From positions 51,070 to 115,069 of the forward strand of contig CAZTJF010000004.1 in assembly GCA_964613805.1 (NCBI GenBank): a DNA stretch of 64,000 bases, in the 5' to 3' direction. The DNA comes from an uncultured Ignavibacteriaceae bacterium (GTDB lineage: Bacteria > Bacteroidota > Ignavibacteria > Ignavibacteriales > Ignavibacteriaceae). Position 1 is the stretch's first letter; each line of letters starts with the position of its first letter. The notes beneath the pieces are model-generated. The model saw only the letters and a list, made by a program, of their open reading frames with translations, was not told the DNA's origin and searched no databases. The position numbers and the translations under genes were made by a program. Of the stretch, positions 4,820 to 23,229 are shown piece after piece.

Positions 4820-4831
4820 AGGTTAATTTGT

Positions 4832-5245: not shown

Positions 5246-5261
5246 CGAATATTTTTTAGTG

Positions 5262-5325
5262 TCACTCTGAGCGTGTCGAAGAGTGAGATTCTCATAGAGT
5301 CAGATTTCGACTTGCTCAATCTGAC
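5262..5325. repeat. Pair of intergenic stem-loops (REP-like hairpin element)
   Basis: Hairpin 1: tcactct (5262-5268) pairs with agagtga (5280-5286). Hairpin 2: gtcagat (5299-5305) pairs with atctgac (5319-5325). No trailing T-run follows. The element sits in the 99-nt gap between the receiver gene and the hybrid kinase gene. Confidence 0.5.
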
Positions 5326-5344
5326 AAAGTTATTGAATTGATTA

Positions 5345-6826: not shown

Positions 6827-6871
6827 GAAATTAACTCACTAAAAATTCACTAATCAAATAAAGGGAATCTT

Positions 6872-7258: not shown

Positions 7259-7259
7259 T

Positions 7260-7733
7260 ATGTTAGTTGAAGAAAAAAATGCTTTGACTGAAGAGATTGA
7301 ACAGTTGATAAAAAAGTTTGGTAAAAGAAGATCTGCTTTGCTGTCAATTCTTCATGGTATTCAAGCTAAACACAGACATGTTTCGGAATATGCTCAGCAG
7401 GAGATAGCGCGCTTGCTGGATATTCATCCTGTTGAAGTTTACAGCGTCCTTTCATTTTTTACTTTTCTGAATGCAACTCGAAAAGGCAGAAACCTTGTCC
7501 GAATCTGCCAAACAATTACCTGCGATATGAAAGGAAAGGACAACATTGTTAGAGCCATTGAGCGTGAATTAGATGTAAAGATTGGTCAAACCACAAACGA
7601 TAATAAATTTACGGTTGAATATGTTAATTGCCTCGGTCTGTGTGATGAAGGTCCAGCTATGGCAATAAATGATCAAGTTTTTACAAAGCTCACACCTGAG
7701 AAAGCTGTTAAATTATTAAGTAAGGTGAAGTGA
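7260..7733 (+). CDS. hydC: [FeFe]-hydrogenase 2Fe-2S thioredoxin-like subunit (HydC/NuoE-like)
   Basis: NuoE pattern: SALLSILHGIQ ... CQTITCDMKG ... CLGLCDEGPAMAIND. I chose ATG 7260, one base after the preceding stop codon. The ORF track starts at 7239. Confidence 0.85.
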   Translation: MLVEEKNALTEEIEQLIKKFGKRRSALLSILHGIQAKHRHVSEYAQQEIARLLDIHPVEVYSVLSFFTFLNATRKGRNLVRICQTITCDMKGKDNIVRAIERELDVKIGQTTNDNKFTVEYVNCLGLCDEGPAMAINDQVFTKLTPEKAVKLLSKVK

Positions 7734-7740
7734 GGTAAAT

Positions 7741-8949
7741 ATGGAAACAAAAATAAAGAAAAGAACAGGTCCGATTATATTTTCAGAGTACGAAAGAGGA
7801 TCGGCTATTAAAAAAGCTCTCGATATGAATCGAGAAGATATTCTGCTCGAAATTAGAGAATCAAAACTTAAAGGAAGAGGCGGTGCTGGTTTTCCAACTT
7901 CAACTAAATGGATGTTAACTGCAGCTTCTTTGAGTGATGAAAAATTTATTATTTGCAATGCTGATGAAGGCGAACCAGGAACGTTCAAAGATAGAGTCCT
8001 TCTAATTGAATATCCTGAACTCGTGTTAGATGGAATGGTCATTGCCGCATATACTATTGGCGCGCAGCAAGGAATAGTTTACTTGAGAGGTGAGTACGAA
8101 TATCTGCTTAAACCGCTTCAAGATTACCTCGAAGGAATGCGTAAAGACAATTTGCTTGGTAAAAACATTCTTGGCAAGCAGGGATTTTCTTTTGATATAA
8201 CTGTCTTTCTTGGTTCTGGAGCATATGTCTGCGGCGAAGAAACTGCATTGATAGAATCTTTAGAAGGGCATCGCGGTGAAGCACGTAACCGACCGCCATA
8301 TCCGGTTAACACCGGTTACATGGGAAAACCCACTATCGTAAATAATGTTGAAACACTCGCTTCGGTACCTCACATTATAGTTAAAGGATCTGCATGGTAT
8401 AAAAAACTTGGAACAGGTGTTTCAACTGGTTCGAAACTGTTTTCAGTTTCAGGTGATTGTGATAAGCCAGGTGTTTATGAATTACCTTGGGGTACTAAGA
8501 TAAGTGAACTTCTCAAATTAGTTGAAGCAAAGAATACCAAAGCTGTTCAAGTCGGTGGAGCATCTGGATTTTGCTATAATAAAAATCAGTTTAACAGAGC
8601 ACTTGCTTATGAAGATGCTGCAACTGGCGGCTCAATCATGATATTTAATGAAAACCGGGACATGCTAAGAGTGCTGGACAATTTTATGGAGTTCTTTGTA
8701 GATGAATCTTGCGGACAATGTACGCCATGCCGTATCGGTAATGTGAAAATGCTTGAAGGAGTGAAGATGATTCAAAGAGGCGACTATACTTTTGCCTATA
8801 TCAATAAACTGAAAGAATTAGGTAAATCAATGCAAGTAGCATCAAAGTGCGGATTGGGGCAATCAAGTCCAAACGCTTTCTTATCAATCTTAGAAAACTT
8901 TAATGAAGAGATATTTAACCGAGAAAATGGAGTTGACAATGAAAACTAA
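7741..8949 (+). CDS. hydB: [FeFe]-hydrogenase flavoprotein subunit, NuoF core only (HydB2)
   Basis: [53 protein letters not shown] and CGLGQSSPN motifs. It lacks the C-terminal 2x[4Fe-4S] domain present in the paralog at 1-1026. Confidence 0.9.
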   Translation: METKIKKRTGPIIFSEYERGSAIKKALDMNREDILLEIRESKLKGRGGAGFPTSTKWMLTAASLSDEKFIICNADEGEPGTFKDRVLLIEYPELVLDGMVIAAYTIGAQQGIVYLRGEYEYLLKPLQDYLEGMRKDNLLGKNILGKQGFSFDITVFLGSGAYVCGEETALIESLEGHRGEARNRPPYPVNTGYMGKPTIVNNVETLASVPHIIVKGSAWYKKLGTGVSTGSKLFSVSGDCDKPGVYELPWGTKISELLKLVEAKNTKAVQVGGASGFCYNKNQFNRALAYEDAATGGSIMIFNENRDMLRVLDNFMEFFVDESCGQCTPCRIGNVKMLEGVKMIQRGDYTFAYINKLKELGKSMQVASKCGLGQSSPNAFLSILENFNEEIFNRENGVDNEN

Positions 8950-10855
8950 AGAAACTTCCCGAGCTCCTGTAAGTCAACAGGCACATGTTATTCAAAAACC
9001 AGAGCATCCGGAATACATCGGCGGTTCCATTTCGGTTGAGATAAATGAGAAGAAAGTTACTGTTCCAATGGGAACAACAATTCTCGAAGCGTGCAGACAA
9101 AATCAAGTTTATGTTCCAACGTTATGCCATCACGATGATTTGTGTATTGCCGGCGTTTGCAGAATATGCGTGGTTGACGTTGAAGGAATGAGAACTTTAC
9201 AAGCTGCTTGCGCTTTTCCAATTACGGCACCAATAAAAATTAGAACTTCAACTCCAATGGTTCGCAAAGCAAGAAAGCATATCATTGATCTTCTTCTAAG
9301 CGAGCATTACGGTGAATGTTACTCGTGTTTTAGAAATAACAACTGTGAGCTTCAAACACTGGCAAAAGAATATGGTGTTGATCATTACAATTTTGGTCAT
9401 GTTGAAAATCCAAGATATGAAGTTGATAGCTCGTCCTATTCTGTTGTTCGTGATATGGATAAATGTATCTTGTGCAAAAGATGCGTTCGCACCTGCATAG
9501 ATTTACAGGAAGTCGGTGTGCTTGAAGCAATTGGTAGAGGATATAAAACTCGCATCGGCACTTTTTCAGAAAAACCATTAGCAGAAGTTGTGTGTATTAA
9601 TTGCGGGCAATGCATAAATCGCTGTCCAACCGCTGCATTACGAGCTAACGATCCTCGTGACGAAATTTGGGAGGCAATTGATAATCCGGATAAGCATGTT
9701 GTAATTCAAACAGCACCCTCTCCGAGGGCTGGAATTGGTGAGGAATTTGGAATCGAACCAGGTCATTCTTTTACAGGAGAAATGAACACGGCATTAAGAA
9801 GAATCGGTTTCGATAGAGTATTCGATACAAACTTTACTGCCGATCTAACAATAATGGAAGAAGGAACTGAATTACTGCTTCGGCTTTACAAAGCACTTGT
9901 CAAAAAAGATACTTCTGTCGTGATACCTCAATTTACATCATGTTCACCGGGCTGGGTAAAGTACCTCGAACATTTTTATCCCGAATTTATTCCGAATCTC
10001 AGTTCAGCAAAATCACCGCAGCAAATGTTTGGTGCACTTATAAAAACTTATTATGCCAAGAAGCATAACATTGACCCTGCTAACATTGTTAGTGTTGCGG
10101 TTATGCCTTGCTCAGCAAAGAAGTTTGAGTGCAACAGACCTGAAATGACTTCATCCGGATTTAAGGATGTTGATTATGGATTGACGGCACGTGAACTTGC
10201 TCAAATGATTAAAGAATCAGGAATTTATTTACCTGAAATGCCAAAGTCCAATTTTGATGATCCATTTGGTGATGCATCAGGTGCAGGACTTATTTTCGGT
10301 GCAACCGGCGGTGTAATGGAAGCAGCACTTAGAACGGTGATTGAATTAGTTACTGGAATAAAAGTTGAAAAAGTTTTTGATAATATGAACATCATGCCAG
10401 TTAGAGGATTTGAAGGAATTAAATATGCCGAACTTCCAATTACAAAAGTCGGACCTGTTCCCAAAATTTTAACTCATCTTGTTCCTAACTGGGATTGGCT
10501 AAAGGGAGCAACCGTAAAAGTAGCAGTTGCGCATGGTACAGCCAACGCAAAGAGAGTAATTGAGGATATCAAAGCCGGCGGTAAATTCAGCGAATGTCAT
10601 TTCATTGAATTCATGGCTTGTCCTGGCGGATGTATAGGAGGCGGTGGTCAGCCAATTCCTACAAATGCTGAGATTAGACGACTTAGAGCAAAAGCAATTT
10701 ATGATGAAGATGCTTCGCTCGGATTGCGAAAATCTCACGAGAACACTCACGTATTAAAACTGTATGAAGAATTTTTGACTGATGGTCCTTGCGGGCACAC
10801 GGCGCATAAACTGCTTCATACGCATTATACGAAGAGAGGAAAGTTTATTTCCTAA
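8939..10855 (+). CDS. hydA: [FeFe]-hydrogenase catalytic subunit, M3-type (HydA2) with variant L1 motif
   Basis: 2Fe-2S region (CHHDDLCIAGVCRICVVDV), HYGECYSCFRNNNC, CILCKRCVRTC and CINCGQCINRCP. H-cluster motifs: L1 FTSCSPGWV (variant), L2 MPCSAKKFE, L3 EFMACPGGCIGGGGQP. The start is ambiguous (ATG 8903, 8927 or 8939). I chose 8939 because a GGAG lies 6 nt upstream. Confidence 0.9.
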   Translation: MKTKETSRAPVSQQAHVIQKPEHPEYIGGSISVEINEKKVTVPMGTTILEACRQNQVYVPTLCHHDDLCIAGVCRICVVDVEGMRTLQAACAFPITAPIKIRTSTPMVRKARKHIIDLLLSEHYGECYSCFRNNNCELQTLAKEYGVDHYNFGHVENPRYEVDSSSYSVVRDMDKCILCKRCVRTCIDLQEVGVLEAIGRGYKTRIGTFSEKPLAEVVCINCGQCINRCPTAALRANDPRDEIWEAIDNPDKHVVIQTAPSPRAGIGEEFGIEPGHSFTGEMNTALRRIGFDRVFDTNFTADLTIMEEGTELLLRLYKALVKKDTSVVIPQFTSCSPGWVKYLEHFYPEFIPNLSSAKSPQQMFGALIKTYYAKKHNIDPANIVSVAVMPCSAKKFECNRPEMTSSGFKDVDYGLTARELAQMIKESGIYLPEMPKSNFDDPFGDASGAGLIFGATGGVMEAALRTVIELVTGIKVEKVFDNMNIMPVRGFEGIKYAELPITKVGPVPKILTHLVPNWDWLKGATVKVAVAHGTANAKRVIEDIKAGGKFSECHFIEFMACPGGCIGGGGQPIPTNAEIRRLRAKAIYDEDASLGLRKSHENTHVLKLYEEFLTDGPCGHTAHKLLHTHYTKRGKFIS

Positions 10856-10865
10856 GTACATTCAT

Positions 10866-10903
10866 AAAAATCCCTCTCCGAGTGAGAGGGATTTTTAGTT
10901 TTT
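10866..10903 (+). terminator. Rho-independent terminator after hydA2
   Basis: A perfect 13-bp stem: aaaaatccctctc (10866-10878) pairs with gagagggattttt (10884-10896), with loop cgagt. T-rich sequence follows. Confidence 0.8.
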
Positions 10904-10999
10904 ATTATTGACATTGAGCGAAAAAAGTCCTTTTTATGGAATGAGAAAAAAATATTTCTCAGTTAAGTCATCCAATTATTTAAGAACGAGAGGTGTAAA

Positions 11000-12502
11000 A
11001 TGAAAAAAGTCCTTTTTTTCTGTTTATGCTCTTTTCTTTCATATCAATTATTAGCTCAACCCTTCCAGAAAAAGCAGATAACAAATTTTGATTGGGATTC
11101 AAGAGGTGCTGTAATTCCAAATTATCCGCTTGGAATTTCAACCTTGCCCAATTCGCCAATATTTTTTGAGGCACATAAGAATAATTCTTCTAACATTATG
11201 ATGATGAGCTACAGTCCGAATGCTGACAGCTTTTACAATCCCACTGAGCTAACAAAGAACAATTTCCTTAATATAAATGCTGATGCAAGCTGCAGCCAAA
11301 TTTATCCTAATGTTAAAGTCAATATAATTTGGCAAACCAACGAAAATGGTAATTGGGATATTGCACTTAGAACACTAACAGATTCCACTTGGAGTGCAAA
11401 AAAATACATAGCTAATTCTCTATCAAATGAAACCAACCCTAAATTTGTTGCAAGACATAATAATCATTTTCCCACAGCAACTTCTATTGAAGTTTTATAT
11501 GAAAGAGATAACAGCATTTATCTTTATAAAGAGACTGAGTCAGTTGTGACTAATGAAATAGTTTTCAGTGGTGATAGTTTGAATAAATTCACTCAGTCCA
11601 CTGGAATTTATTATGATGTTTGGTTTGGACCCCCCTCCGGTTTGTATGTAGCTGCTGTTTACAAACCAAATGATACGGCTTCTATTATTGTTTATCGTTA
11701 TAAAGCAAACGAAGATTCGGTTTGGAGTCCAATTCTCACAGCTTATGACAGCGGTTATTGTGAAAATCCAAGTTTTTACAACGTGTTTTTTGAACAATGT
11801 CCAATGAGTTTTGAAAAGGTAATCGGAAACAAACGACAAGTATTTGTTATACCCAAATTGGAGTATCTTGGTCAAAACAACCAAGCCGTTAAGCTCACAG
11901 ATAATACAGCAACCAGCACTTCAAACTTGAAGATGTTCATGTATGGTATGGTTGGTAAAAAAGAAAACTTAGAGGATTATTATTTCTCAGGACCTCATTC
12001 ATTTAAATCAATTTCCAATGACTCAACCTACATTGTTTGTTTATTTTATCCTTTTCCAGTACATGCAATGTTTTATTCTAAAGTAGCTGACAGTAGAATT
12101 GGTTTGGGTAATATCGGTATGTTTTACGGCTATGCTGTCTCTTATCGAATTTGGGAAGATAGTTCCGATGGAAAAATTAATTTATTTGGTTTTTTGATGT
12201 ATGATCCTTTGGGAAATGTAGATGATAAAATTGAGGCAACTAATTTTCAGCTTTACCAAAATTACCCCAACCCCTTTAATCCCAACACTGTAATTCGGTA
12301 TAGCTTACTCTCAAGAGATTTTGTTACCCTTAAAGTTTTTGACGTATTGGGAAATGAAGTTGCAGCATTAGTAAATGATGAAATGGATGCTGGTGAATAC
12401 AAAACAATTTTTGATGGATCAAATTTAGCAAGCGGAATTTATGTCTATCGGCTGACGGTTGGAAAGAATTATATTAGTCGAAAGATGATATTATTAAAAT
12501 AA
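11000..12502 (+). CDS. Secreted protein of unknown function with T9SS C-terminal sorting domain
   Basis: Signal peptide (MKKVLFFCLCSFLSYQLLAQ). The C-terminal ~80 aa (LYQNYPNPFNPNTVIRYSL ... GIYVYRLTVGKNYISRKMILLK) match the T9SS type-A CTD pattern. Confidence 0.75.
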   Translation: MKKVLFFCLCSFLSYQLLAQPFQKKQITNFDWDSRGAVIPNYPLGISTLPNSPIFFEAHKNNSSNIMMMSYSPNADSFYNPTELTKNNFLNINADASCSQIYPNVKVNIIWQTNENGNWDIALRTLTDSTWSAKKYIANSLSNETNPKFVARHNNHFPTATSIEVLYERDNSIYLYKETESVVTNEIVFSGDSLNKFTQSTGIYYDVWFGPPSGLYVAAVYKPNDTASIIVYRYKANEDSVWSPILTAYDSGYCENPSFYNVFFEQCPMSFEKVIGNKRQVFVIPKLEYLGQNNQAVKLTDNTATSTSNLKMFMYGMVGKKENLEDYYFSGPHSFKSISNDSTYIVCLFYPFPVHAMFYSKVADSRIGLGNIGMFYGYAVSYRIWEDSSDGKINLFGFLMYDPLGNVDDKIEATNFQLYQNYPNPFNPNTVIRYSLLSRDFVTLKVFDVLGNEVAALVNDEMDAGEYKTIFDGSNLASGIYVYRLTVGKNYISRKMILLK

Positions 12503-12510
12503 ATTGAAAA

Positions 12511-12620
12511 GACATCAGAAAAATACTGGATGTCATTTCGATCCCGATTTCAATCGGGAGAGAAATCTTCAATTTCGAAAAGATTTCTCAGTCTTGCAAA
12601 GCCATCCTTCTTCCAAAGGA
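12511..12620. repeat. Cluster of four consecutive intergenic stem-loops
   Basis: Four stems in series: gacatc/gatgtc (12511-12534), tcccga/tcggga (12542-12559), gagaaatctt/aagatttctc (12560-12589, 10 bp perfect) and tcctt/aagga (12605-12620). Confidence 0.5.
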
Positions 12621-12706
12621 ATGATTTTGACAGAAATGATTTTTCATAATTATTCAGAGATCTTTTGAACTTAATCTTAAAAAGAATTTAATTAACACCA
12701 AAAAAT

Positions 12707-14116
12707 ATGATACGATTAATTCCTGATTGGGCACACAAATACGAAGCATTTTGGGATGCTATACGAAAACGCAACATGTGGTTCATCAAGCTGCGTTATG
12801 GAGCCGTGTTAATGCTCACAAGTTTTATTCTTGCTTCCGAATATTTCCTCGGATTTAAGTTTACCGAGACGCAAACTATTGCTATATCTGTAATAACAAT
12901 ATCAATTTTGACTTATAATGCACTTTTACATATTGGTAAGAAACATATTAAATCAATCGCTGGACAATTTAATCCTCTCCATCTTTCAGTAATTCAGATA
13001 CTTTTAGATTTTATTGCACTCTTTTTACTCGTTCATTTTACCGGAGGAATCGAAACACCATTATACATGCTATTTGTTTTTCATATGATAATTGGAAGCT
13101 TGATACTTCCGGGTTCAATAATTTACCCTGTCGGAGCTGTTGTTGTGTTAGGTTTTGGCGGTATTGTTTTTTCAGAATATTATCACATCATTCCGCATTA
13201 TGCCATTCAAGGTTTCCTAAATACTCAACTTTATGATGATTTCAATTACGTTGTATCAATCTTTACAATTTTTGGATTTACAATTTTTATTAGCATTTAT
13301 CTTGCAAATGGAATTGCACGTCAACTCTATAGTATGGAACAGGATTTAATTGAAACCCTTGATCGTCTCAACGTTGCAGAAATGGAAAAGCAAAGGTATA
13401 TCGTGGGGATTGTTCATGAGATAAAAACACCACTAACAGCAGTTCAGTCTTATTTAAATTTGATACTACAAAAATTCCTTGGACCTCTCGATAAAAAAGT
13501 TGAAGAACGACTAATCAGAGCGCGTACAAGATCTGAAGAAGCAATACACCTAATAAATGATGTGATAAAAATTTCAAGGTTTAAATTATTTAATCAGTTT
13601 GTTCATGAAGAAATTCTGATTGAAGAAGTGATGAGCGAACTTGCAAATAAACATTCCGAAATTGCAGAAACTAAAAAGATTAAACTGGTATTTAATGATA
13701 ACAGGAAAACCAATACAAAAATAAAGGGCGATAAATTTTTGTTAACACTTGCAATTTCAAATCTTATTGGCAATGCCGTAAAATTTGTCGGTAAGAAAGG
13801 ATTAATTGAAGTGAATATGGAAGATGATGAGAATAACCTGCTTATTTCCATTTGTGATAATGGTATGGGCATTCCTGAAAACGAATTAGAGAAAATATTC
13901 ATAGCATTCTTCAGGTCATCTAACGTAAGTAAAGATAAGCAAGAGGGAGCCGGAATTGGTTTATCAATTGTAAAAGAAATTATTGAAAAGCATGAGGGAA
14001 AAATCTCAGTCGAAAGTCCTTCAAGATTAACAAACGGCAATAAACCTGGAACGTGCTTTAAAATACAATTACCTAAAATCAATATTTCATCAATAAAAAA
14101 AGGAGGAGTTCAATGA
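12707..14116 (+). CDS. Polytopic membrane sensor histidine kinase
   Basis: About six hydrophobic segments with short loops at the N-terminus. H-box (IVGIVHEIKTPLTAV) and HATPase_c (NLIGNAVKF ... DNGMGIP ... GAGIGLSIVKEII). The stop overlaps the next start (ATGA at 14113). Confidence 0.85.
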   Translation: MIRLIPDWAHKYEAFWDAIRKRNMWFIKLRYGAVLMLTSFILASEYFLGFKFTETQTIAISVITISILTYNALLHIGKKHIKSIAGQFNPLHLSVIQILLDFIALFLLVHFTGGIETPLYMLFVFHMIIGSLILPGSIIYPVGAVVVLGFGGIVFSEYYHIIPHYAIQGFLNTQLYDDFNYVVSIFTIFGFTIFISIYLANGIARQLYSMEQDLIETLDRLNVAEMEKQRYIVGIVHEIKTPLTAVQSYLNLILQKFLGPLDKKVEERLIRARTRSEEAIHLINDVIKISRFKLFNQFVHEEILIEEVMSELANKHSEIAETKKIKLVFNDNRKTNTKIKGDKFLLTLAISNLIGNAVKFVGKKGLIEVNMEDDENNLLISICDNGMGIPENELEKIFIAFFRSSNVSKDKQEGAGIGLSIVKEIIEKHEGKISVESPSRLTNGNKPGTCFKIQLPKINISSIKKGGVQ

Positions 14117-15477
14117 ACAACATTACTTCTAAAATTATCTTTTCCACCGCACTTATTTTTATTTTCTGTTTTGATAATTATTCACAGCAAGTGAAAGCCG
14201 GCGATCATGCGTTGGGCACAAGAAAATATGAAGACTTCAGCAAAGCCACTCTTTGCGGATCTGCGTGTCATAATGATTTCTTTCAGCAGTGGAAACAGGC
14301 AATGATGTCCCAATGTTATCATCACGAGTGGGATGAAATAGAATACTTCAAGCTTGCTGTTCCACATGCAGAGAAAGATCAGATTGTTGCCGGAGTTAAA
14401 GCGGGATGCAACGGTTGTCATGCGCCAATTTCATTTTTAGCTGGTGATGTTCCTCCACCAAAGCCAGATAAAATGTCTATGGCTAATGAATCTGTAAACT
14501 GCGATGTTTGTCATACAGTAACCGGATTTGAAGGTGATACACCATTCAACTTCAACTTTATTTCTTCGCCGGGAAATGTGAAGTATGGACCGAGAGAAAA
14601 TGTTGAATCGCCCGAACATGAAATAAAGAAATCTGAATTCTTAGCTAGTGCAGAATTTTGCGGTACATGCCACAATGAAAAAGATCCCTATGGAATTTGG
14701 GTTAAGTCAACACATCTTGAATGGAAGGAAGGTCCATATGCAAAGGAAGGCGTTAAATGCCAAAATTGCCACATGACTTATGCACCAGGATATACCGCTG
14801 CGATGGGGAAATTTTATCCGGATACTCGTCAGCATCTATTTCACGGTGCTCATGATCCTGGTAAAGTAAAAGGCACAATTGAATTACGAATCCATCCCGA
14901 CATAAATGAAGCTGAACCTGGCGAAAGAGTAAAATTCACAATTGCATTGTTCAATCAAAAAACCGGACACAAATTTCCAACTGGTTCAGTGGAAGATAGA
15001 ATTGTCTGGATGCACGTCGAAGCGGTTGATGCTAAAGGAAAAGTATATCACATACCTGTGGATAAAAAAGGTTTCGCGGGCGAAGAATTTACAATTGGAA
15101 GTGATGCGCTTGCTTATCAGGATATGGGAATAGCTTTGAACGATGAGAATTTCAAAGGCGTACAGCGTGATGGAATTCCAATTGGAGATAGGATATTTCG
15201 CATGCCGTATTTTGATCCTCAAGGTCGAATGACAATTCAGCAGTGGAACACAAAATCTCTTGGTGTTGATTACAGGATCGGACCAAGAGAAACAAAATTA
15301 GAAACTTGTACTTTCACTCTGCCGAATAATCTTCCACCAGGAAAACTTAAAGTCACTGCTATTTTAAATTATCAGAAACTTGTAAAACCGGTTGCAGATT
15401 TTCTTGGTGTTCCCGAAGAAGAATCAGAGATTATCAAAGTAAATGAGCATTCAACTTACGTTAACATTTTACCATAG
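14113..15477 (+). CDS. Periplasmic multiheme cytochrome c (4 CxxCH + 1 CxxxCH)
   Basis: Signal peptide present. Heme motifs: CGSACH (Cx3CH), CNGCH, CDVCH, CGTCH and CQNCH. The C-terminal ~170 aa are beta-rich and have no heme motifs. Confidence 0.85.
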   Translation: MNNITSKIIFSTALIFIFCFDNYSQQVKAGDHALGTRKYEDFSKATLCGSACHNDFFQQWKQAMMSQCYHHEWDEIEYFKLAVPHAEKDQIVAGVKAGCNGCHAPISFLAGDVPPPKPDKMSMANESVNCDVCHTVTGFEGDTPFNFNFISSPGNVKYGPRENVESPEHEIKKSEFLASAEFCGTCHNEKDPYGIWVKSTHLEWKEGPYAKEGVKCQNCHMTYAPGYTAAMGKFYPDTRQHLFHGAHDPGKVKGTIELRIHPDINEAEPGERVKFTIALFNQKTGHKFPTGSVEDRIVWMHVEAVDAKGKVYHIPVDKKGFAGEEFTIGSDALAYQDMGIALNDENFKGVQRDGIPIGDRIFRMPYFDPQGRMTIQQWNTKSLGVDYRIGPRETKLETCTFTLPNNLPPGKLKVTAILNYQKLVKPVADFLGVPEEESEIIKVNEHSTYVNILP

Positions 15478-15485
15478 GTGCACAA

Positions 15486-16634
15486 ATGAAAAAAACAATT
15501 TTATTCTCTCTGTTGATTTTAATTTTAGTTCCTTACGCTACACAAGCAATTCCTGCCTTTGCTCGGAAGTACAATATGACTTGCAAGACCTGTCATGCAC
15601 CATTTCCAAAACTCAAAGCTTACGGTGAGGAATTTGCCGGTAACGGTTTTGTTTTAAAAGATCAAGATGCTCCAAGATATTTTGTGGAAACAGGTGACGA
15701 AAAACTTTCGTTGATAAGAGATATTCCACTTGCGGTTAGAGTTGACGGCTATGCGACTTTCAATTCCGAAAAATCGGAACGATCCGATTTTAAAACTCCA
15801 TTTATTTTTAAACTATTGTCGGGCGGTTCAATTTTTAAGAATGTTTCATACTATGTTTATTACATTCTTGAAGATGGCGAGGTAGGCAAATTAGAAGATG
15901 CATTCGTGATGTTTAATGATCTTTTCGGAAGCGGACTCGCCTTTTCAATTGGTCAATTTCAGGTATCCGATCCTTTATTCAAAAGAGAATTAAGACTGAC
16001 ACTTGCCGATTACGACATTTACAAAGTGAAAGTTGGTAATTCTCATACAAATCTTACTTACGATCGTGGCATTATGTTGAATTATGGATTTGAGACTGGA
16101 ACAGATTTAACTTTTGAAGTCATAAATGGAAATGGTATTGGTGCAATTGAAAATGGAAACTTTGATAATGACAAGTACAAAAATTTTATGGGAAGAATAT
16201 CACAAGATCTTGGTGAACATATAAGAATAGGCGGATTTGGTTATCTTGGAAAAGAGGAAACAAATGATGTTACAAGTGATTTGTGGATGGTTGGTCCGGA
16301 TGCAACAATTTCTTTTGATCCGATTGAACTGAATGTGCAATTTGTAGAAAGACGGGATAAGAATCCATTCTTTCTGAGTAATGCAGCTATTGAAATTAAA
16401 ACACGCGGAGCTTTTGCTGAACTGATCTTCAGGCCCGATGGTGACAATAGCAATTGGTACGCAGTTGGTTTATACAATTGGGTTGAGTCTAACATCGGTA
16501 TGCTTGATAAAAAATCTGCATCTTTTCATTTAGGATATCTTATGGCAAGAAACATTAGACTGGTTGGAGAACTAACTTACGACTTTACAAATAAGTTTAG
16601 TAAGATCGGGTTAGGTTTTGTTTCGGCTTTTTAG
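15486..16634 (+). CDS. Fused monoheme cytochrome c / outer-membrane beta-barrel protein (Cyc2-like)
   Basis: A signal peptide is followed directly by AIPAFARKYNMTCKTCHAPFPKLKAYGEEF, which holds the single CxxCH. The rest shows an alternating-hydrophobicity, Gly/aromatic-rich pattern. The C-terminus (GLGFVSAF) ends in an aromatic residue, typical of OMP barrels. Confidence 0.65.
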   Translation: MKKTILFSLLILILVPYATQAIPAFARKYNMTCKTCHAPFPKLKAYGEEFAGNGFVLKDQDAPRYFVETGDEKLSLIRDIPLAVRVDGYATFNSEKSERSDFKTPFIFKLLSGGSIFKNVSYYVYYILEDGEVGKLEDAFVMFNDLFGSGLAFSIGQFQVSDPLFKRELRLTLADYDIYKVKVGNSHTNLTYDRGIMLNYGFETGTDLTFEVINGNGIGAIENGNFDNDKYKNFMGRISQDLGEHIRIGGFGYLGKEETNDVTSDLWMVGPDATISFDPIELNVQFVERRDKNPFFLSNAAIEIKTRGAFAELIFRPDGDNSNWYAVGLYNWVESNIGMLDKKSASFHLGYLMARNIRLVGELTYDFTNKFSKIGLGFVSAF

Positions 16635-16643
16635 TTTTTAATT

Positions 16644-16690
16644 GAAGCACAGATTACATTTGCTTAAAGTGAAACGATAATCTGTGCTTC
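16644..16690. terminator. Hairpin between convergent genes (likely bidirectional terminator)
   Basis: A 13-bp perfect inverted repeat: gaagcacagatta (16644-16656) and taatctgtgcttc (16678-16690). T-rich sequence follows on the + strand. It lies between the stops at 16634 (+) and 16709 (-). Confidence 0.6.
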
Positions 16691-16708
16691 TGAAATTTTA
16701 ATTTTTAT

Positions 16709-19700
16709 TTACTTGATTATCACCATCTTCCTGCTTTTAATAAATCCCTTTGCAGAAAGTTGATAGACATAAACTCCGCTTGCAAGATAGTTTGCGTTAA
16801 AATCAATTGAATATCTGCCCGCAGGTTGAAACTCATTAACCAAAGTTTTTACTTCACGACCAAGAATATCATAAATCTTTAACTCGACTTTAGTATCTGT
16901 TGGAATATCGTATTGAATTTTGGTTGTTGGGTTAAAGGGATTGGGATAATTCTGATAGAGCGAATAATCAGTTGGAATAATTTTAGACGAAAGAATATTC
17001 TCTTTATTATTCCTTGCTCTTATAAGTGCATTTAGTTTTGTTCTATAATCGTTTGCATCTTTGGCTGATAAATCCATCCCGCTTACTTTACTCATAGCTG
17101 TATTTCCGCTATCCAAAAGCGATGTTGTGAGTATGTCTATTGCAGCAAAGAACGCTTCCTCACTATTCGGATTCTGAGTAATAACTTCACCAAAATTATT
17201 TATTGCCTGAACGTAATCTTTCTTTGCAACTAAACAAAGATCACTCAAGTGTTTTACTATTTTTAGCATTAAGGTATCTTGAATTGATTGTAATTTGTTG
17301 TCATAGAAACTTTTTAATTCAGAAAAAGTTGAAGCTAAAGTATCAGTTAATTTTGATATGGTGTAAAGTTTAGTGTATGCTTCAATGCTTTTTCTATCCG
17401 AACCATTCGTTTGAATTATTCCATAATAAACTTGTTTTGCTTCGGTAAAATTACCAATGTAAAAATGTTTTGAAGCTAAAGCGTAAGCTTCGGAAATTGA
17501 ATCTGCTGATACAGCTAATCCTAAAGAATAGATGGTATCAATAACAGTTTCGCCTTTACTGTCCTCAATCAGTACAAAATCCCCGTCGCTTTGTTTAGTG
17601 CATGGTTCATTATTATATGGCTCGAAATTAACTTCAACATCGCTCTCAATCCTATGAGATGGATCGTTGCCATATCTTGGATGATTTCCCCAATAATTAT
17701 AATTAGCTCGAATTGGGCTGCGTGTCCTTTCACTAAAGAAAAGAATACGCGTGTTTAAGCCAGGCTGCTCTATTCTGTTGTCGGCAATGGTATTGCAGCC
17801 GTAACCAAGAAGGATATCAGCATCAAACATATGAATTTCTGCCCCATTGTAAAGATTAGCATCGCCATTTTCAAATATTTGATTCAGACCGGATATTGGA
17901 AATACTTTTACTGTCTCCTCTCTTTTTATCATACCTTCTGATAAATCAGGTATTGAACCACTCGATATATATAAGCCGGCTGCTTTATTATCTGTAATAA
18001 TATTTTGCCCGATTTTAGGACTTGAATTACCGAGATCGATTCCTTTTTCAAAACGAGTAATATGATTTAGACGATATATTCCATCGCTGGAGTTTGAAAA
18101 TATTCCAGATTCTGCTGTACCACGATTATTCAGTATTTGTATTAGATTGTCAGCAATATATGGATTTGCTACTTGCAAAAGTTGTATACCAAAATCATAG
18201 TCATTGATGGTATTACTTTCTATTGCTGCTTCGGATCCATTCATTAATATTATAGCACTTGTTTTTTCATTTTCGCTTACAGGTTTCGGCGATGTTATAA
18301 TATTTTTTTTGATGATAGGAAAAATATTCTGAAAGTCATTAAAATAAATACCTTCAATACAATTATTGATTTGGTTGTTTTCGATAATAAAATTACCGGA
18401 TACGATAGGGTTTTCAGATGATTTAAAATCTCTCCCACAGGAAATACCATAATCAAAATTTGATATGATGCAATCTGAAATATTAACATTTTTACAATTA
18501 AGGGTAGAAATGCCGCGAGAATCATCTATAGGCGCTTCTTTAAATAATGTTACATTTTCTATTTTAAGATTATTTACGCTGAAAACTTGAATCCCCCGCT
18601 TATAATTATCGCCTCTTATTATAGAATTTTTTATAATGACTTCATGACTGTTTGGAGAAACTTTTGTATCTAAATATAATCCTTTGGACATATCATTGAA
18701 CTCGACATTATCTATATTTATAGAGGCAATGTTACTTGCATGAGTTTTTATTTCGATAATATATACCCTATTAATTATAGCATTAGTTAACTCAACATAA
18801 TTTGCATCGCTAATCGTAATAGAAGAATTAAAATTGTTCGAGTTAATCCGTATCTTAATTGATTCCGTTCCAACTGCATAAAGCTTATGTTTTATTAGCA
18901 GTTTACTCGTGTCATTAAAAAAGAGCACTGCTCCGGCAGCAATGGTTAAGCTATCTGTACTTAGAGATGATTTATTATTGAAACGCAAATGCTCCCCGGT
19001 ACCAACTGTTAAATTTGTTGCTGTTAGATAGCTGTTATTATAAAAATTAAAAGTGCCATTAGCTATTAGAACATTTGCAGTATCAAATTTGGAATTTGAA
19101 AATCCATAAAAGTTAAGTACTGCTTCGTTTTCAATTTCGAGTGTCCCATCTATTTGAAGCGAGGCATTTCTTCTAAAATTTACTATTGCATCGTGTGGTA
19201 TAGTTAATTTTATTCCTTCGGGTACGATAAGTTTACCGTAGATATCTCCGCTTGTAATAGTTGTATCTTGTGTAAGTATTTTAGTTACTTGTGCTGGGAG
19301 TATTCTGGTTAGGGGGTCACCAACTATTACATTCTGCCAAGCTAAATATTTCATGCCCATATACACAGCATCGACATAATTGTAACCAATAGCATATGCT
19401 GGCATAAATATATTGTTATATATTACTCCACTTGGACCATAAGATGGTACTGGCTCCCAGGCATGTCCCATCATTCCTGTCCCGCCAATTTGAGTAAATT
19501 GAGTTGCCAAACCCTGTGTACGATTATTTTGATACGACGAACATGGAGCTATCCAACGCCACTTTAAAACCCCAATACTGTTTCCATTAAAACTTTCGAG
19601 TGAGTTGAAAACTGCACCAGGGGCAAATTGAAAATATTGTAGGGAATCTTTAACCCAGTTTGAATCTGTAAATGCACAATTGTCATCTTCTGCATGCGTT

Positions 19701-20656
19701 CCCCAGGATGAATAACCGATTACCGAACCATCATTATGTGTTATCCATTTCCCATCGTTATTCCAATTAACATTAAAACCAAGAGCTTCGAGCTTATTCT
19801 TTGCATCTGTAAAGAAAGAATAATGATATGTGGATGGAATATCATCATCATCTAAAACCCAGGTAGCAGTTCCGGTAGTGTCAGCATTTTTTGAACTATC
19901 AATTATTCCTTTAACTATTTCAAAACTTAATCCATCCAAATGTGAAACAAGGTAAGATAATTTAATCGTATCTGTTCCCATTATTTTCATAAAGCGATCA
20001 GGTAAGAATCTGTAATCCAATGTAAAATTTTTATCGGAATCAAAGTACGGATTATTTATTTTAGGTTGATAATTTACGGCATCAAATAAAGTTTGGAGTA
20101 GAAAAGTATCATAATTTGAAGTATTTAAAATTGATAATAAACCATCAACTGTTAAATTGCCAGGTAACGCTTGCCAATCGCTTCCTGCTTGAATTTTATA
20201 TGGGACTCCTTTACAAAGGACGATGTACCTTATTGTTGAAGTTAGGTTATGAGATGTTATCCAATTGCGGATTGGTGTGGATACGTTATTCAGAAAATAT
20301 ACCCAGGCATGACGATTCGCTCCAGTCCAAGGCAATATATTTTTAGAGCTGTCTTGAATAATGTCTCCATTTTGTGCAATGATAACTCTGTGTGTGCTGC
20401 CGTCTATTGTAATTGTTTGTGAAGTTAAAGAATTTAAAGGGCAAATATTTACCGCTGGTATGCCGCGGGCGAGCCGGTAGTATTCCTTCACTGAATCAGA
20501 AACAGCTCCTAAAGTATCTGTTGGATCAGATTGCACCTTATATACCACTAATATGTTTTCTGGACCTGGGATTCCAGCATAAGTGGGTATCTGTTGTGCT
20601 TCTATAAAATTGTTACAATAAAGAAGCAGCAAAACAAAAAGTAAAAAATTTTTCAT
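16709..20656 (-). CDS. Very large secreted protein: N-terminal unknown domain + right-handed beta-helix repeats + helical region + T9SS CTD
   Basis: Signal peptide present. The central region has repeated N/I/G-rich turns typical of parallel beta-helix proteins (NLKIENVTLF, NVNISDCIISNFDYGIS, IIENNQINNCIEGIY). The C-terminus is a T9SS sorting domain (LYQNYPNPFNPTTKIQYDI ... GVYVYQLSAKGFIKSRKMVIIK). Confidence 0.75.
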   Translation of the reverse strand: MKNFLLFVLLLLYCNNFIEAQQIPTYAGIPGPENILVVYKVQSDPTDTLGAVSDSVKEYYRLARGIPAVNICPLNSLTSQTITIDGSTHRVIIAQNGDIIQDSSKNILPWTGANRHAWVYFLNNVSTPIRNWITSHNLTSTIRYIVLCKGVPYKIQAGSDWQALPGNLTVDGLLSILNTSNYDTFLLQTLFDAVNYQPKINNPYFDSDKNFTLDYRFLPDRFMKIMGTDTIKLSYLVSHLDGLSFEIVKGIIDSSKNADTTGTATWVLDDDDIPSTYHYSFFTDAKNKLEALGFNVNWNNDGKWITHNDGSVIGYSSWGTHAEDDNCAFTDSNWVKDSLQYFQFAPGAVFNSLESFNGNSIGVLKWRWIAPCSSYQNNRTQGLATQFTQIGGTGMMGHAWEPVPSYGPSGVIYNNIFMPAYAIGYNYVDAVYMGMKYLAWQNVIVGDPLTRILPAQVTKILTQDTTITSGDIYGKLIVPEGIKLTIPHDAIVNFRRNASLQIDGTLEIENEAVLNFYGFSNSKFDTANVLIANGTFNFYNNSYLTATNLTVGTGEHLRFNNKSSLSTDSLTIAAGAVLFFNDTSKLLIKHKLYAVGTESIKIRINSNNFNSSITISDANYVELTNAIINRVYIIEIKTHASNIASINIDNVEFNDMSKGLYLDTKVSPNSHEVIIKNSIIRGDNYKRGIQVFSVNNLKIENVTLFKEAPIDDSRGISTLNCKNVNISDCIISNFDYGISCGRDFKSSENPIVSGNFIIENNQINNCIEGIYFNDFQNIFPIIKKNIITSPKPVSENEKTSAIILMNGSEAAIESNTINDYDFGIQLLQVANPYIADNLIQILNNRGTAESGIFSNSSDGIYRLNHITRFEKGIDLGNSSPKIGQNIITDNKAAGLYISSGSIPDLSEGMIKREETVKVFPISGLNQIFENGDANLYNGAEIHMFDADILLGYGCNTIADNRIEQPGLNTRILFFSERTRSPIRANYNYWGNHPRYGNDPSHRIESDVEVNFEPYNNEPCTKQSDGDFVLIEDSKGETVIDTIYSLGLAVSADSISEAYALASKHFYIGNFTEAKQVYYGIIQTNGSDRKSIEAYTKLYTISKLTDTLASTFSELKSFYDNKLQSIQDTLMLKIVKHLSDLCLVAKKDYVQAINNFGEVITQNPNSEEAFFAAIDILTTSLLDSGNTAMSKVSGMDLSAKDANDYRTKLNALIRARNNKENILSSKIIPTDYSLYQNYPNPFNPTTKIQYDIPTDTKVELKIYDILGREVKTLVNEFQPAGRYSIDFNANYLASGVYVYQLSAKGFIKSRKMVIIK

Positions 20657-20667
20657 ATTATCTCCTT

Positions 20668-23229
20668 CTATTTAATTAGTATTAGTTTTTTTGTAGCGGT
20701 GTATCCGCTTTTTGTTGTCATTCGATAGTAATATATCCCCGAAGCATATTTTTTTAGATCAATCTCAATACTGTAAATACCTCTTTCTTTTTCTTCATTA
20801 AGTATTTCTTTAATTTTTTCTCCAGTCATTGAGAAAAGTTCTATTTTCACTGAAGTCCTTTGGGGAACGGTAAATGAAATATTGGTATGAGGGTTTGCCG
20901 GATTTGGGTAGTTTTGTGTTAAAACAAAATTATTAACTAGAATTTGTATTGAAACAACTTCTGAAAATTTATTGCTGCCATCAAAATCTATTTGCTTTAT
21001 TTTATAATGAAGTTGTTCACTTTCAATTTTAAAGTCACTGAAGGAATAATTTCTAATTTCTGTACTTGTTCCAGCTCCATGAAGAAAACCAATTTTTTCC
21101 CAATTTTGTAAATCAGAAGATTTCCAAATTTCAAAACCATAATTGTTGACTTCACTTGCTGTTGACCAGTTTAATTCAATTTTATTTAAGGAATACCTCG
21201 CAGTGAGTTGTGTAAGTTCTACGGGTACATAGGTTGTGTCGAAATATTTCAATATCAGTCCATAACCGCTTACTGCATATCCAATATATTCGATTGGAGA
21301 ATGAAACTGTCCAAAAATAGCAGGCAACTCTCCACTTATTTCTTCCCAAGAATTTCCATTATCGGTGGTTTCAAAGACTTGACCCATAGACCATCCATTC
21401 GAAATCCAATGATATTTATTCGGAAAAGCATGAATATTATATGATGTTTCGATTCTTGTTTCTCTTTGCCAACTAATGCCACCATTTGTTGTTTTATAAA
21501 GATCATGACTACCGGTATTTGTCATATCAACTGTGACAAATCCTGTATCAATTGATGTGAAATATATGTTTCTATTAAAATAAAGCTGCACATCTGTTCT
21601 CTGAATCCAATTCGTACCACCATTTGTAGTTTGCCAAATGTATCTGCTTGTTGCCCAGCCGTTGAGCGAGTCTATGAAGTATATGCTTGTAAATGAATCT
21701 ATAGATAAATCTTCTAACTGCTCAAACCAATTCTCCCCGCCATCTGTAGTTTTTAATATCTTTCCTTTTGTCCCAGGAGACCATCCAGTTGCTGCCCAAC
21801 CAGTCGTTTGGTTAGTAAAAAATATTTTATAAACAGTGCCTATCGTATCGCTAGTATTTGTTACGTACCAATTTACCCCACCATTTATTGTTTTATAAAT
21901 TCTTACTTGATCAACGTCACCGGTATAAGTTGTACCAATAAATCCGATAGCATCGTCGGTAAAAACAATATCGTTACCGCCTGGTGCACCAGAGACTATT
22001 TCCCAACTAACTCCGCTATCTTCCGTTTTAAATAACTGTCCATACGGCCCAGAACTAATTGCAAATCCTTTTTCTGCGCTTACAAAAAACACATCGGTAA
22101 AGTTTTCGTTAATTATTAGTTTTCTCCAGCTATCAAGGTTTCCTTCTGCCTTAAAAATATTTAGTGCAGTTCCAGCACTGTAACCTATCTTCCCAGACAT
22201 ATCTTTTAAAAACTGTAATTCATAATTATCACTTATTCCTCCAATGGGTGTCCATTCCTGCCCTCTATTGGTCGTTTTACGCGCAGATACATTGGTCATT
22301 ACCAAATAACCTGTATCTGGATTTACATATTGTATACAGTTTACAGATTCAAGATTTAAAGTCCCACCGTTAATCCAGGTATTCCCTCCATCACTGCTGT
22401 AAATGTTTTTTGCCGGATAACTTGTTCCTCCATAACCAGCCGCTGCTATGTGTAAGCTGTCTATTACATCTAAGCAAAAAAGTGGAGCGCTGTCTCCAGC
22501 TTGTAGTACTTCCCAATTAGTTCCTCCGTCTGTTGTTCTCAATACATTTCCATTTGCTGCTATAAAACCATAACTCTCAGTAAAAAAATCTATCCACCAA
22601 TAATCAGAGGTATAGCTGGGTGTAAATATTCTTTGCCACGTTAATCCACCATCAGTCGTTTTAATCAGTGAGTTTGCAGTGCCGCAAGCCCAGCCAAGTG
22701 TATCATTCAGCATTTGCAAACCCCAAAGATCACCATTAACTCCGCTTGCAACTTGTGTAAATGTTTCCCCGCCATCTGTTGAGTGGAGTATCAAACCGTT
22801 GTAACCACTCGCAATAACAACTGCTCCATTAAAACTTCGTACTTTAAGTATTGGTGTTGTAGTTTGTGAGTTAATGTTTAGCCAGCTTTCTCCGCCATCA
22901 GTAGATTTAATCAGCGTACCATTAGCCCCACAAGCCCAGCCTGTGTCTTTATTGATGAAGTGTATTCCGAGGTAATCAACTCTTGGCACTTTGGGATTTA
23001 GTTCTGTCCAAACACCGGTTCCGGTTTGTACAGTTTTTAACGGCATGAGAGAAGGGTCGTATTCGGGAAGGTTTATATGGTTGCGATAATCGGGGCGCTT
23101 GATACTTGTATCTGGATACTGCCCGCTGCTATGTGGGATGCCAACCTTCGGTTGGTAAATTTGTGGAAATGCAATAACTGCAAATGTGCAAAACAACAAC
23201 ATGAAAATTCTGTAACAAAGTTTCATCAA
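20668..23229 (-). CDS. Secreted BNR/Asp-box repeat protein (tandem beta-propellers) with T9SS CTD
   Basis: Twelve Asp-box-like motifs (STDGGESW, STDGGETF, TTDGGLTW, TTDGGTNW, SSDGGNTW, TTNRGQEW, TEDSGVSW, TINGGVNW, TTDGGENW, TTNGGTNW, TTNGGISW, TTDNGNSW). The C-terminus is a T9SS sorting domain (LTQNYPNPANPHTNISF ... LILIK). Only 11 nt separate it from the downstream gene on the same strand. Confidence 0.8.
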   Translation of the reverse strand: MMKLCYRIFMLLFCTFAVIAFPQIYQPKVGIPHSSGQYPDTSIKRPDYRNHINLPEYDPSLMPLKTVQTGTGVWTELNPKVPRVDYLGIHFINKDTGWACGANGTLIKSTDGGESWLNINSQTTTPILKVRSFNGAVVIASGYNGLILHSTDGGETFTQVASGVNGDLWGLQMLNDTLGWACGTANSLIKTTDGGLTWQRIFTPSYTSDYWWIDFFTESYGFIAANGNVLRTTDGGTNWEVLQAGDSAPLFCLDVIDSLHIAAAGYGGTSYPAKNIYSSDGGNTWINGGTLNLESVNCIQYVNPDTGYLVMTNVSARKTTNRGQEWTPIGGISDNYELQFLKDMSGKIGYSAGTALNIFKAEGNLDSWRKLIINENFTDVFFVSAEKGFAISSGPYGQLFKTEDSGVSWEIVSGAPGGNDIVFTDDAIGFIGTTYTGDVDQVRIYKTINGGVNWYVTNTSDTIGTVYKIFFTNQTTGWAATGWSPGTKGKILKTTDGGENWFEQLEDLSIDSFTSIYFIDSLNGWATSRYIWQTTNGGTNWIQRTDVQLYFNRNIYFTSIDTGFVTVDMTNTGSHDLYKTTNGGISWQRETRIETSYNIHAFPNKYHWISNGWSMGQVFETTDNGNSWEEISGELPAIFGQFHSPIEYIGYAVSGYGLILKYFDTTYVPVELTQLTARYSLNKIELNWSTASEVNNYGFEIWKSSDLQNWEKIGFLHGAGTSTEIRNYSFSDFKIESEQLHYKIKQIDFDGSNKFSEVVSIQILVNNFVLTQNYPNPANPHTNISFTVPQRTSVKIELFSMTGEKIKEILNEEKERGIYSIEIDLKKYASGIYYYRMTTKSGYTATKKLILIK

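Follow-up and report, generated by a model that had tools for sequence, protein, structure and literature searches.

The fused cytochrome-porins of the Cyc2 family include Cyc2 of Acidithiobacillus ferrooxidans, Cyc2PV-1 of Mariprofundus, and Cyt572 of Leptospirillum (Keffer et al. 2021; McAllister et al. 2020). The sequence criteria for the family comprise a signal peptide, a single CXXCH heme motif, an upstream AXPXFAR[Q/K][T/Y] motif that is stated to be unique to Cyc2, PXL located four residues downstream of the heme motif, a length of at least 365 amino acids, and a 16-strand porin (Keffer et al. 2021, PMC8406198). The length threshold used by FeGenie is at least 375 amino acids. Here we describe a Cyc2-type gene in a stretch of 64,000 nucleotides (hereafter the window, to which all positions refer) from an uncultured Ignavibacteriaceae bacterium (contig CAZTJF010000004.1 of assembly GCA_964613805.1). 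This open reading frame (ORF3, 15486-16634, plus strand, 382 amino acids) directly follows a gene for a pentaheme cytochrome c (ORF2, 14113-15477, plus strand, 454 amino acids), which in turn overlaps a gene for a membrane-embedded histidine kinase (ORF1, 12707-14116, plus strand, 469 amino acids). Judged from comparisons of gene neighborhoods, the conserved unit is two genes, cytochrome then barrel, and it makes up a large subfamily within the Cyc2 family. By the same comparisons, the kinase belongs to an adjacent hydrogenase and phosphorelay island rather than to the cytochrome-barrel unit.

ORF3 shares with the Cyc2 proteins named above the signal peptide, the single CXXCH, the FAR and PXL motifs, a length of more than 365 amino acids, and the 16-strand barrel. 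It differs from them in its host, an anaerobic or facultative heterotroph that is no known iron oxidizer, and in its gene context, for its constant upstream neighbor is a c552-class pentaheme gene, and it does not stand alone or beside cyc1. The rus operon of A. ferrooxidans (cyc2-cyc1) also places an outer-membrane Cyc2 gene beside a gene for a periplasmic c-type cytochrome. However, the partner here is not a diheme c4 but a 454-residue pentaheme protein with a putative Ig-like domain, the two genes stand in the opposite order, and neither rusticyanin nor oxidase genes come after the pair.

The cytochrome has its closest described relatives in cytochrome c552 (PDB 5ZE8) and the sPHC family, which includes Geobacter ExtKL/MccSep. 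Common to them are five c-hemes in an N-terminal part of ~240 residues followed by a beta-rich domain, and ORF2 also shares an H-x-x-P-T-G motif with c552. Nevertheless, ORF2 is only ~18% identical to 5ZE8, and its first heme motif is CX3CH. MccSep (ExtKL) carries five hemes and reduces polysulfide in the periplasm. It consists of a heme cap and an Ig-like stem, its heme 2 has a His/Cys ligand pair, and its catalytic selenocysteine lies in a loop of the Ig-like domain (bioRxiv 10.1101/2025.11.18.688581). In contrast, ORF2 has neither the His/Cys heme ligand (C239) nor the selenocysteine (U325), and it scores far under the cut-off of the ExtKL model.

Two further arrangements invite comparison. 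In ptdAB, a pair with no assigned function, a gene for a pentaheme protein with a beta-sandwich is followed by a porin gene, and this arrangement occurs in marine Alphaproteobacteria, Nitrospirales, and others (bioRxiv 10.1101/2023.11.21.568154). When compared by description only, ptdAB and the pair described here have the same layout, but our pair lacks ptdC-G, which encode a flavoprotein, a tetraheme protein, an Fe-S protein, a ferric-reductase-like protein, and a decaheme protein. The MtrAB, MtoAB, and PioAB systems and the Geobacter Omb/Oma/Omc and Ext systems likewise encode a periplasmic multiheme protein next to an outer-membrane barrel. Here, however, the 16-strand barrel bears a heme of its own, is too narrow for a multiheme sheath, and is accompanied by no extracellular lipoprotein cytochrome. 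An MtrAB-type sheath complex, in which a heme-free porin of about 20-28 strands holds a periplasmic decaheme protein, is ruled out by the 16-strand barrel, its own heme, and the pentaheme partner.

Because FeGenie-based surveys already call cyc2 in Ignavibacteriales, Zixibacteria, and Aminicenantes, the cyc2 gene examined here is not new in itself. In the literature searched, we found no description of a constant pairing between Cyc2 and a c552-class pentaheme cytochrome, the nearest case being ptdAB. Searches for literature on the Ignavibacterium album genes IALB_0267/0268 found none, and the pair goes unmentioned in a multi-omics paper on Melioribacter. Thus, the gene family is known, and its conserved pairing is little described.

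A Cyc2-type barrel and its pentaheme partner

By every published sequence criterion, ORF3 is a Cyc2-family protein. Inspection of the translation reveals a Sec-type signal peptide, MKKTILFSLLILILVPYATQA, that ends in TQA and is followed by the mature sequence IPAFARKY, and the segment AIPAFARKY (residues 21-29) fits AXPXFAR[Q/K][T/Y]. The sole heme motif of the protein is CKTCH at residues 33-37, and PKL at residues 41-43 (within CKTCH-APF-PKL) fits the PXL criterion. The length exceeds both thresholds given above, and the last residue is Phe. Across 42 homologs, residues 22-23, 25-29, 33-37, 39, 41, and 43 are invariant, and conservation reaches at least 90% at A21 and A24. An alignment of 16 distant representatives, 18-29% identical to its reference sequence, likewise shows no change in the heme motif (P, CXXCH, and PXL), and the FAR motif is retained, with variants, in the distant relatives that were read.

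An AlphaFold2 (AF2) model of ORF3 has 16 strands, with a predicted local distance difference test score (pLDDT) of 63-89 in the barrel region. In Foldseek searches, the best PDB folds are general porins of the 16-strand OmpF/Omp32 type (E about 1e-10, template modeling [TM] score 0.5-0.65). There were no matches to models in Pfam or NCBIfam. The family is nonetheless large, with 5753 matches among the candidates scored and 1807 clusters at 50% identity at E <= 1e-3. The best protein matches are 63-97% identical, with IALB_0268 of I. album at 63%.

ORF2 encodes a putative periplasmic pentaheme cytochrome c of the c552/ExtKL class, with a signal peptide, five heme motifs, and a C-terminal beta-rich domain. 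The first motif is CGSACH (CX3CH, residues 48-53), and the other four are CXXCH (residues 99-103, 130-134, 183-187, and 216-220). All five are invariant in 72 orthologs. The first has the form CGxxCH in nearly all genome orthologs and is more often a plain CXXCH in a set of metagenome sequences. In alignment, the CX3CH falls on the first CXXCH of the pentaheme c552 (5ZE8), and it is conserved across orthologs, so it is reasonable to count five hemes. Ten His residues are invariant in the same 72 orthologs, five of them proximal, and these would be enough for five bis-His electron-transfer hemes.

The only meaningful sequence match of ORF2 in the PDB is 5ZE8, the c552 of Thermochromatium tepidum (phmmer E 1.2e-6, profile E 1.6e-8). 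This protein is also the top Foldseek match (E 5e-9, ~18% identity), with a TM score of only 0.3 because the ORF2 model is poor. The conserved C-terminal beta-rich, putatively Ig-like domain contains GHKFPTGSVEDR, and the C-terminal strands at residues 256-305 and 394-452 are all beta, with a pLDDT of 80-93. A conserved loop, TGHKFPTG, carries the invariant His286 and no Cys.

Two other identities for this protein were considered and rejected. ORF2 is not a conserved lipoprotein, as only 3% of orthologs retain its N-terminal Cys19. Nor is it an enzyme of the MccSep type, given that it has no Cys equivalent to C239 and neither selenocysteine nor Cys for U325. There is no extra conserved Cys in the 72 orthologs (C68 is kept in 3%, and the other non-motif Cys in 24%), and the reading frame is uninterrupted, with no in-frame TGA that could encode selenocysteine. 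For these reasons, we place ORF2 in the c552/ExtKL structural class and not in the MccSep enzyme family, and its score with the NCBIfam ExtKL model NF040886 is 38.8 bits, far below the cut-off of 250. We read ORF2 as an electron carrier, not an enzyme, on the evidence of its relation to 5ZE8, its predicted heme ligands, and its lack of the Cys or selenocysteine of MccSep.

An earlier note on this DNA had described three plus-strand genes with an ATGA overlap, an 8-nt gap, and a terminal hairpin, and had read their products as a membrane-embedded kinase, a secreted cytochrome with five heme motifs, and a Cyc2-like outer-membrane barrel with one N-terminal heme motif. The arrangement, the kinase domains with their polytopic N-terminus, and the fused heme-porin are all borne out. 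For the cytochrome, the number of motifs stands, and the motifs themselves are four CXXCH and one CX3CH. The note had also stated that its reading would fail if the barrel were an ordinary porin whose CXXCH varies among homologs. This objection falls away because the motif is kept in distant relatives, even those of about 25-30% identity.

Conservation of the pair was followed in a scan that used one genome per species. At least 577 genomes have relatives, and loci were taken from the best 80, whose hosts are Ignavibacteria, Melioribacteraceae, Bacteroidales, Aminicenantes, Zixibacteria, Kapabacteria, Acidobacteriota, and others. An ortholog of the pentaheme gene lies directly 5′ of the barrel gene in 78 of the 81 loci from genomes. 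Of the three others, two lack upstream DNA, and the last is locus L002 from a metagenome-assembled genome of Ignavibacteria (RIFOXYB12). There, the cytochrome gene is missing between the kinase gene and the Cyc2-type gene (L002:6700-7010), and only its last ~60 nt are left, which reflects either a natural deletion or an assembly artifact. The usual gap between the two genes is 8-15 nt across loci. The pairwise identities of cytochrome and barrel correlate (Mantel r 0.716, with none of 999 permutations as high), and the cytochrome is the more conserved of the two (mean identity 67% versus 53%). No conserved neighbor besides the pair was found across 84 loci, and the 64-kb window contains no other heme ORF.

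The pairing extends to metagenomes. In a scan seeded with four distant relatives, 69 loci had enough upstream DNA, and in 50 of these the pentaheme gene is located upstream of the barrel gene. The unpaired metagenome barrels are mostly the most distant ones, and five of them follow an ORF with two CXXCH motifs instead (L149, L154, L155, L157, and L161). The upstream ORFs of L149, L155, and L161 belong to the diheme cytochrome c peroxidase/MauG family (PF03150), and a regular-expression search found no Cyc2 heme motif in the barrels of these five loci. The claim that the multiheme protein is the partner of the barrel is therefore upheld by adjacency in both data sets and by the correlated identities.

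The kinase and cytochrome ORFs of the window overlap by 4 nt (ATGA, 14113-14116), and a strong Shine-Dalgarno sequence, AAGGAGG (14100-14106), stands within the 3′ end of the kinase gene, 6 nt ahead of the cytochrome start. Together these form a probable translational-coupling junction (14100-14116, plus strand), and the same 4-nt overlap is present in two other loci, L003 and L082. The gap between cytochrome and barrel genes measures 8 nt (15478-15485), with AGGTG just 5′ of the barrel ATG. A stem-loop at 16644-16690 (GAAGCACAGATTA...TAATCTGTGCTTC) has a stem of 13-14 bp and a folding energy of -20.2 kcal/mol (z = -4.4), and none of 200 shuffled sequences folds as well. It lies between convergent genes, the one beyond it encoding a protein with a tail for the type IX secretion system (T9SS), and it likely closes the unit as a bidirectional intrinsic terminator. 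A sigma-70 promoter scan performed no better than on shuffled sequence. A Rfam scan of 10800-16900 gave sub-threshold matches at the hydA terminator only and no riboswitch or leader.

Some relatives have a different upstream region. In I. album (L001:4962-6277) and about 10 similar loci, two genes stand directly 5′ of the pair. Their products are a secreted protein of ~200 amino acids with DxDGDGIPNGxD repeats (calcium-binding, thrombospondin-3-like) and a lipoprotein of the ferritin-like DUF2202 type. Further upstream, these loci have a divergent gene for a PAS kinase and a gene for a sigma-54 response regulator. The combination of PAS kinase and sigma-54 response regulator occurs upstream of the pair in 24 loci. 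Sigma-54 control of the pair was considered and dropped, as TGG-N9-TGC[AT] occurs 5′ of the cytochrome gene in only 3 of 74 loci and not in the window.

The kinase and the hydrogenase island

The kinase has Pfam HisKA (residues 231-291) and HATPase_c (residues 342-457) domains and a weak 6TM_PilS match. Its polytopic N-terminus occupies about residues 26-205, where six transmembrane (TM) segments can be read from the sequence and a hydropathy scan gave five that partly overlap. Residues 1-222 alone match the ActS/PrrB/RegB model NF033792 with E 4.2e-8 over profile positions 13-186, and the whole protein scores 93.8 bits, under the cut-off of 350. RegB is marked by a quinone-binding loop, GGXXNPF, in which N110 and F112 are fully conserved, by the conserved R31 and Q38 in TM1, and by the redox-active Cys265 between the H-box and the ATPase domain.

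Compared with RegB, PrrB, and ActS, the kinase has a homologous six-TM domain, a short conserved TM3-TM4 loop, and an Arg in TM1. That loop reads TGGIETPL, and the family consensus from 118 homologs is TG-x-x-E-x-P-L. At the position of GGXXNPF, N is thus replaced by T or S and F by L, and the motif is not present. Arg30 (IKLRYGAV, TM1) is conserved, and in the conservation pattern of the homologs no conserved Gln follows 7 residues later. Cys residues are found at positions 383 and 450 only, neither of them equivalent to Cys265. There is also no RegA-type regulator beside the kinase, nearby receivers being single-domain or hybrid proteins. Unlike the RegB group, then, the kinase lacks the N and F of GGXXNPF, Cys265, an adjacent RegA, and apparently an equivalent of Q38, and it is tied to an [FeFe]-hydrogenase island. 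Judged by these defining motifs, the kinase is not a RegB. Regardless, we infer that it may act as a membrane-embedded redox sensor.

Orthologs of this kinase follow hydA in eight of eight contexts (the window and loci L002, L003, L005, L015, L082, L083, and L084), and the island precedes the kinase gene likewise in all seven of those other loci. Locus L082, where the kinase is 75% identical, has the order HydC-HydB-HydA-kinase-pentaheme-barrel. In L083 and L084 (55-57% identical), the kinase again comes after hydA, and nothing cytochrome-like comes after the kinase. In L084, it directly abuts a PAS hybrid kinase, and in the window the cytochrome pair, three genes with T9SS tails, and a DUF1232 gene lie between the corresponding two kinases. 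As far as gene order can tell, the pair occupies an island position that is empty in L083 and L084.

The pair, for its part, mostly occurs without the kinase. High-scoring kinase orthologs are present at only 4 of the 81 genome loci of the pair, and the pair stands without the kinase in about 75 other genome loci and in the 50 metagenome loci. The ATGA-coupled three-gene form was seen only in the window, L003, and L082, which represent a narrow clade of Ignavibacteriaceae. In L005 and L015, kinase and pair are loosely linked, 0.6-1.1 kb apart, and L002 has kept the kinase and the barrel and lost the cytochrome. Because the kinase tracks hydA with or without the pair, and the pair mostly does without the kinase, the three-gene synteny is lineage-specific.

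The island to which the kinase belongs extends from 2771 to 10855 on the plus strand and consists of hydrogenase and receiver genes. It begins with a sensory [FeFe]-hydrogenase H-cluster domain fused to HisKA/HATPase_c (2771-4819), which we take to resemble the histidine-kinase-linked group C sensory hydrogenases. This gene is followed by those for a single-domain receiver (4832-5245), a receiver-kinase hybrid (5345-6826), another receiver (6872-7258), HydC (7239-7733), HydB (7741-8949), and a group A6 HydA (8903-10855), all on the plus strand. The convergent right-hand border is also conserved and is formed by a gene for a PAS-rich hybrid histidine kinase with a receiver (24461-27856, minus strand). 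None of the receivers (4832-5245, 5345-6826, 6872-7258, and 24461-27856) has a DNA-binding output domain.

Two [FeFe]-hydrogenase large subunits of the HydA type (1047-2774 and 8903-10855), with NuoF/NuoE-like partners, flank the phosphorelay genes, and this layout suggests that a single sensory system governs two hydrogenase sets, bifurcating or NADH-dependent. The window also holds three genes for large secreted proteins with C-terminal T9SS sorting domains (11000-12502, 16709-20656, and 20668-23229). These are lineage-specific insertions into the island, and all three are absent from L082 and L084. The first (11000-12502, plus strand) was inserted between hydA and the kinase gene, is also present in L002, and is absent in L003, L082, L083, and L084.

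These comparisons change how the locus was first understood. The earlier note had pointed to a sensor kinase that heads a structural operon with no response regulator nearby, and had proposed a self-sensing unit of three genes. Receivers are in fact encoded 5-8 kb upstream (4832-5245, 5345-6826, and 6872-7258), and another is encoded downstream (24461-27856, minus strand). The three-gene unit is not supported, as the kinase follows hydA in every context, twice without the pair, and the pair occurs without the kinase in about 75 loci. Of the synteny that the note asked to have checked, the two-gene pair is widely conserved, and the linkage to the kinase is limited to the Ignavibacteriaceae clade. 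A suggested coupling to H2 metabolism immediately upstream holds as a genomic link within this clade. In the window, however, a terminator-like hairpin after hydA (10865-10897, plus strand, a 14-bp stem with a T-run) and the T9SS gene at 11000-12502 intervene, and this hairpin separates the hydrogenase transcript from the downstream genes. The apparent oddity of the kinase gene therefore dissolves on comparison, and the case cautions that tight overlaps can join genes from different evolutionary units.

The direction of electron flow

If the pair functions as its sequence features suggest, the pentaheme cytochrome would be exported by the Sec pathway and remain in the periplasm, and the Cyc2-type protein would position one c-heme domain within or at its 16-strand outer-membrane barrel. 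The pentaheme protein and the barrel heme, presumably in a complex, could then pass electrons singly across the outer membrane, with the pentaheme protein serving as a periplasmic relay to inner-membrane quinol or oxidase partners encoded elsewhere. The pair is a mobile, co-evolving module shared by many heterotroph lineages, anaerobic or facultative. In the Ignavibacteriaceae clade, it has become translationally coupled to the RegB-like six-TM kinase of the island, and this coupling would cause the conduit to be made together with a putative membrane-redox sensor.

We tentatively propose, with a probability of roughly 40%, that the conduit mainly exports electrons to acceptors that are soluble or colloidal, for example Fe(III) complexes or humic quinones, and that it thereby offers an alternative sink to H2 evolution. 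We lean toward outward flow because the hosts mostly belong to anaerobic heterotroph lineages, because Ignavibacteria are cited as iron reducers (PMC7914226), and because FeGenie classes cluster-3 cyc2, which is found in Geobacter and Rhodoferax, as ‘possible iron reduction’ (PMC7005843). Two further reasons are that the solved relative c552 is low-potential, as described in the title of the cited paper, and that the hydrogenase to which the pair is linked is fermentative.

Several observations weigh against this proposal. Every biochemically tested Cyc2 is a Fe(II) oxidase (PMC8406198), and our Cyc2 assignment of ORF3, by motif criteria, is at the level of the family, above clusters 1, 2, and 3. 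No gene for an inner-membrane partner was found near the pair in the neighborhood comparison. The AF2 model of ORF3 leaves the heme domain unmodeled, as is expected without heme, and the poor model of ORF2 (overall pLDDT 48) is usable for its C-terminal strands and the 5ZE8 top match only. The conserved Met64-Met65 of ORF2 aligns where c552 has Met-His, and these residues could mark a higher-potential His/Met heme that would suit inward flow. Finally, we infer the co-transcription of the kinase gene with the pair from the overlap of the ORFs only.

The reverse direction would make the pair a canonical Cyc2 system. The barrel heme would oxidize Fe(II), either extracellular or entering the periplasm, and electrons would move inward via the pentaheme protein to a terminal oxidase or other reductase. 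The cell would thereby gain energy or detoxify Fe(II) when conditions are micro-oxic or nitrate-reducing. Consistent with this possibility are the Fe(II) oxidase activity of all characterized Cyc2 proteins, the defining motifs carried by ORF3, and the pairing of cyc2 with the periplasmic cytochrome gene cyc1 in the archetypal A. ferrooxidans operon. Furthermore, the surveys mentioned above read the cyc2 genes of Ignavibacteriales, Zixibacteria, and Aminicenantes as a potential for iron oxidation, and the Met-Met near heme 1 might raise the heme potential. However, the hosts are chiefly anaerobic organoheterotrophs and no known iron oxidizers, and the partner is of the c552/ExtKL class, with a solved relative of low potential, and not a high-potential carrier of the c4 type. 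The link to a fermentative H2 island and the occurrence of cluster-3 type cyc2 in iron reducers likewise speak for the other direction. We consider iron oxidation the main rival reading, somewhat less likely than electron export.

It is also conceivable that the pentaheme protein is a periplasmic redox enzyme, either a polysulfide reductase like MccSep/ExtKL or an N-oxide reductase, and that the barrel is mainly a substrate porin with an accessory heme. There is weak homology to ExtKL and to c552, the latter linked to sulfur metabolism, and the outer-membrane route of the substrate of MccSep, itself a periplasmic enzyme, is not settled. The very high conservation of the pentaheme protein, its C-terminal domain included, and the ptdAB pair of marine bacteria would also fit. 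Yet the missing equivalents of C239 and U325, the lack of an in-frame TGA, the low NF040886 score, and ten invariant His that suffice for five bis-His hemes all speak for a carrier, and the invariant Cyc2 heme motif of the barrel argues for electron transfer over plain diffusion. This makes an enzymatic role improbable. The chances appear equally slim that the kinase is a subunit dedicated to the conduit, structural or regulatory, with the redox state or the substrate of the conduit as its signal. Such a role would account for the ATGA overlap, the strong Shine-Dalgarno sequence, and the retention of the overlap in L003 and L082, and it would agree with a sensor domain related to that of the redox sensor RegB. 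It is largely refuted by comparative synteny, namely by the kinases of L083 and L084 that follow hydA without the pair, by the many genome and metagenome loci with the pair alone, by the spacing in L005 and L015, and by the loss of the cytochrome in L002, where kinase and barrel persist.

The proposal of electron export can be widened. The pair might be a distinct minimal outer-membrane conduit for reductive electron disposal in Ignavibacteria, Bacteroidales, Aminicenantes, Zixibacteria, and Acidobacteriota, which in the Ignavibacteriaceae clade is wired to a phosphorelay that senses H2 and the membrane redox state. We regard this wider version as rather unlikely. The cyc2 gene is the most widely used metagenome marker of microbial iron oxidation. 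For the large pentaheme-locked subfamily, which is found in anaerobic heterotrophs and in this genome lies beside control genes of a fermentative hydrogenase, the marker may instead report electron export or a bidirectional conduit, and this changed meaning would alter the reading of iron-cycling potential in sediments and the subsurface. With six hemes in two proteins, the pair is also about the smallest conceivable electron path across an outer membrane and thus a tractable model, and cultured hosts that carry it include I. album (IALB_0268 and the gene upstream) and Melioribacter roseus. If the wider proposal is true, routine calls of iron-oxidation potential from cyc2 would be systematically wrong for those phyla, and the cells could choose between H2 evolution and the extracellular dumping of electrons.

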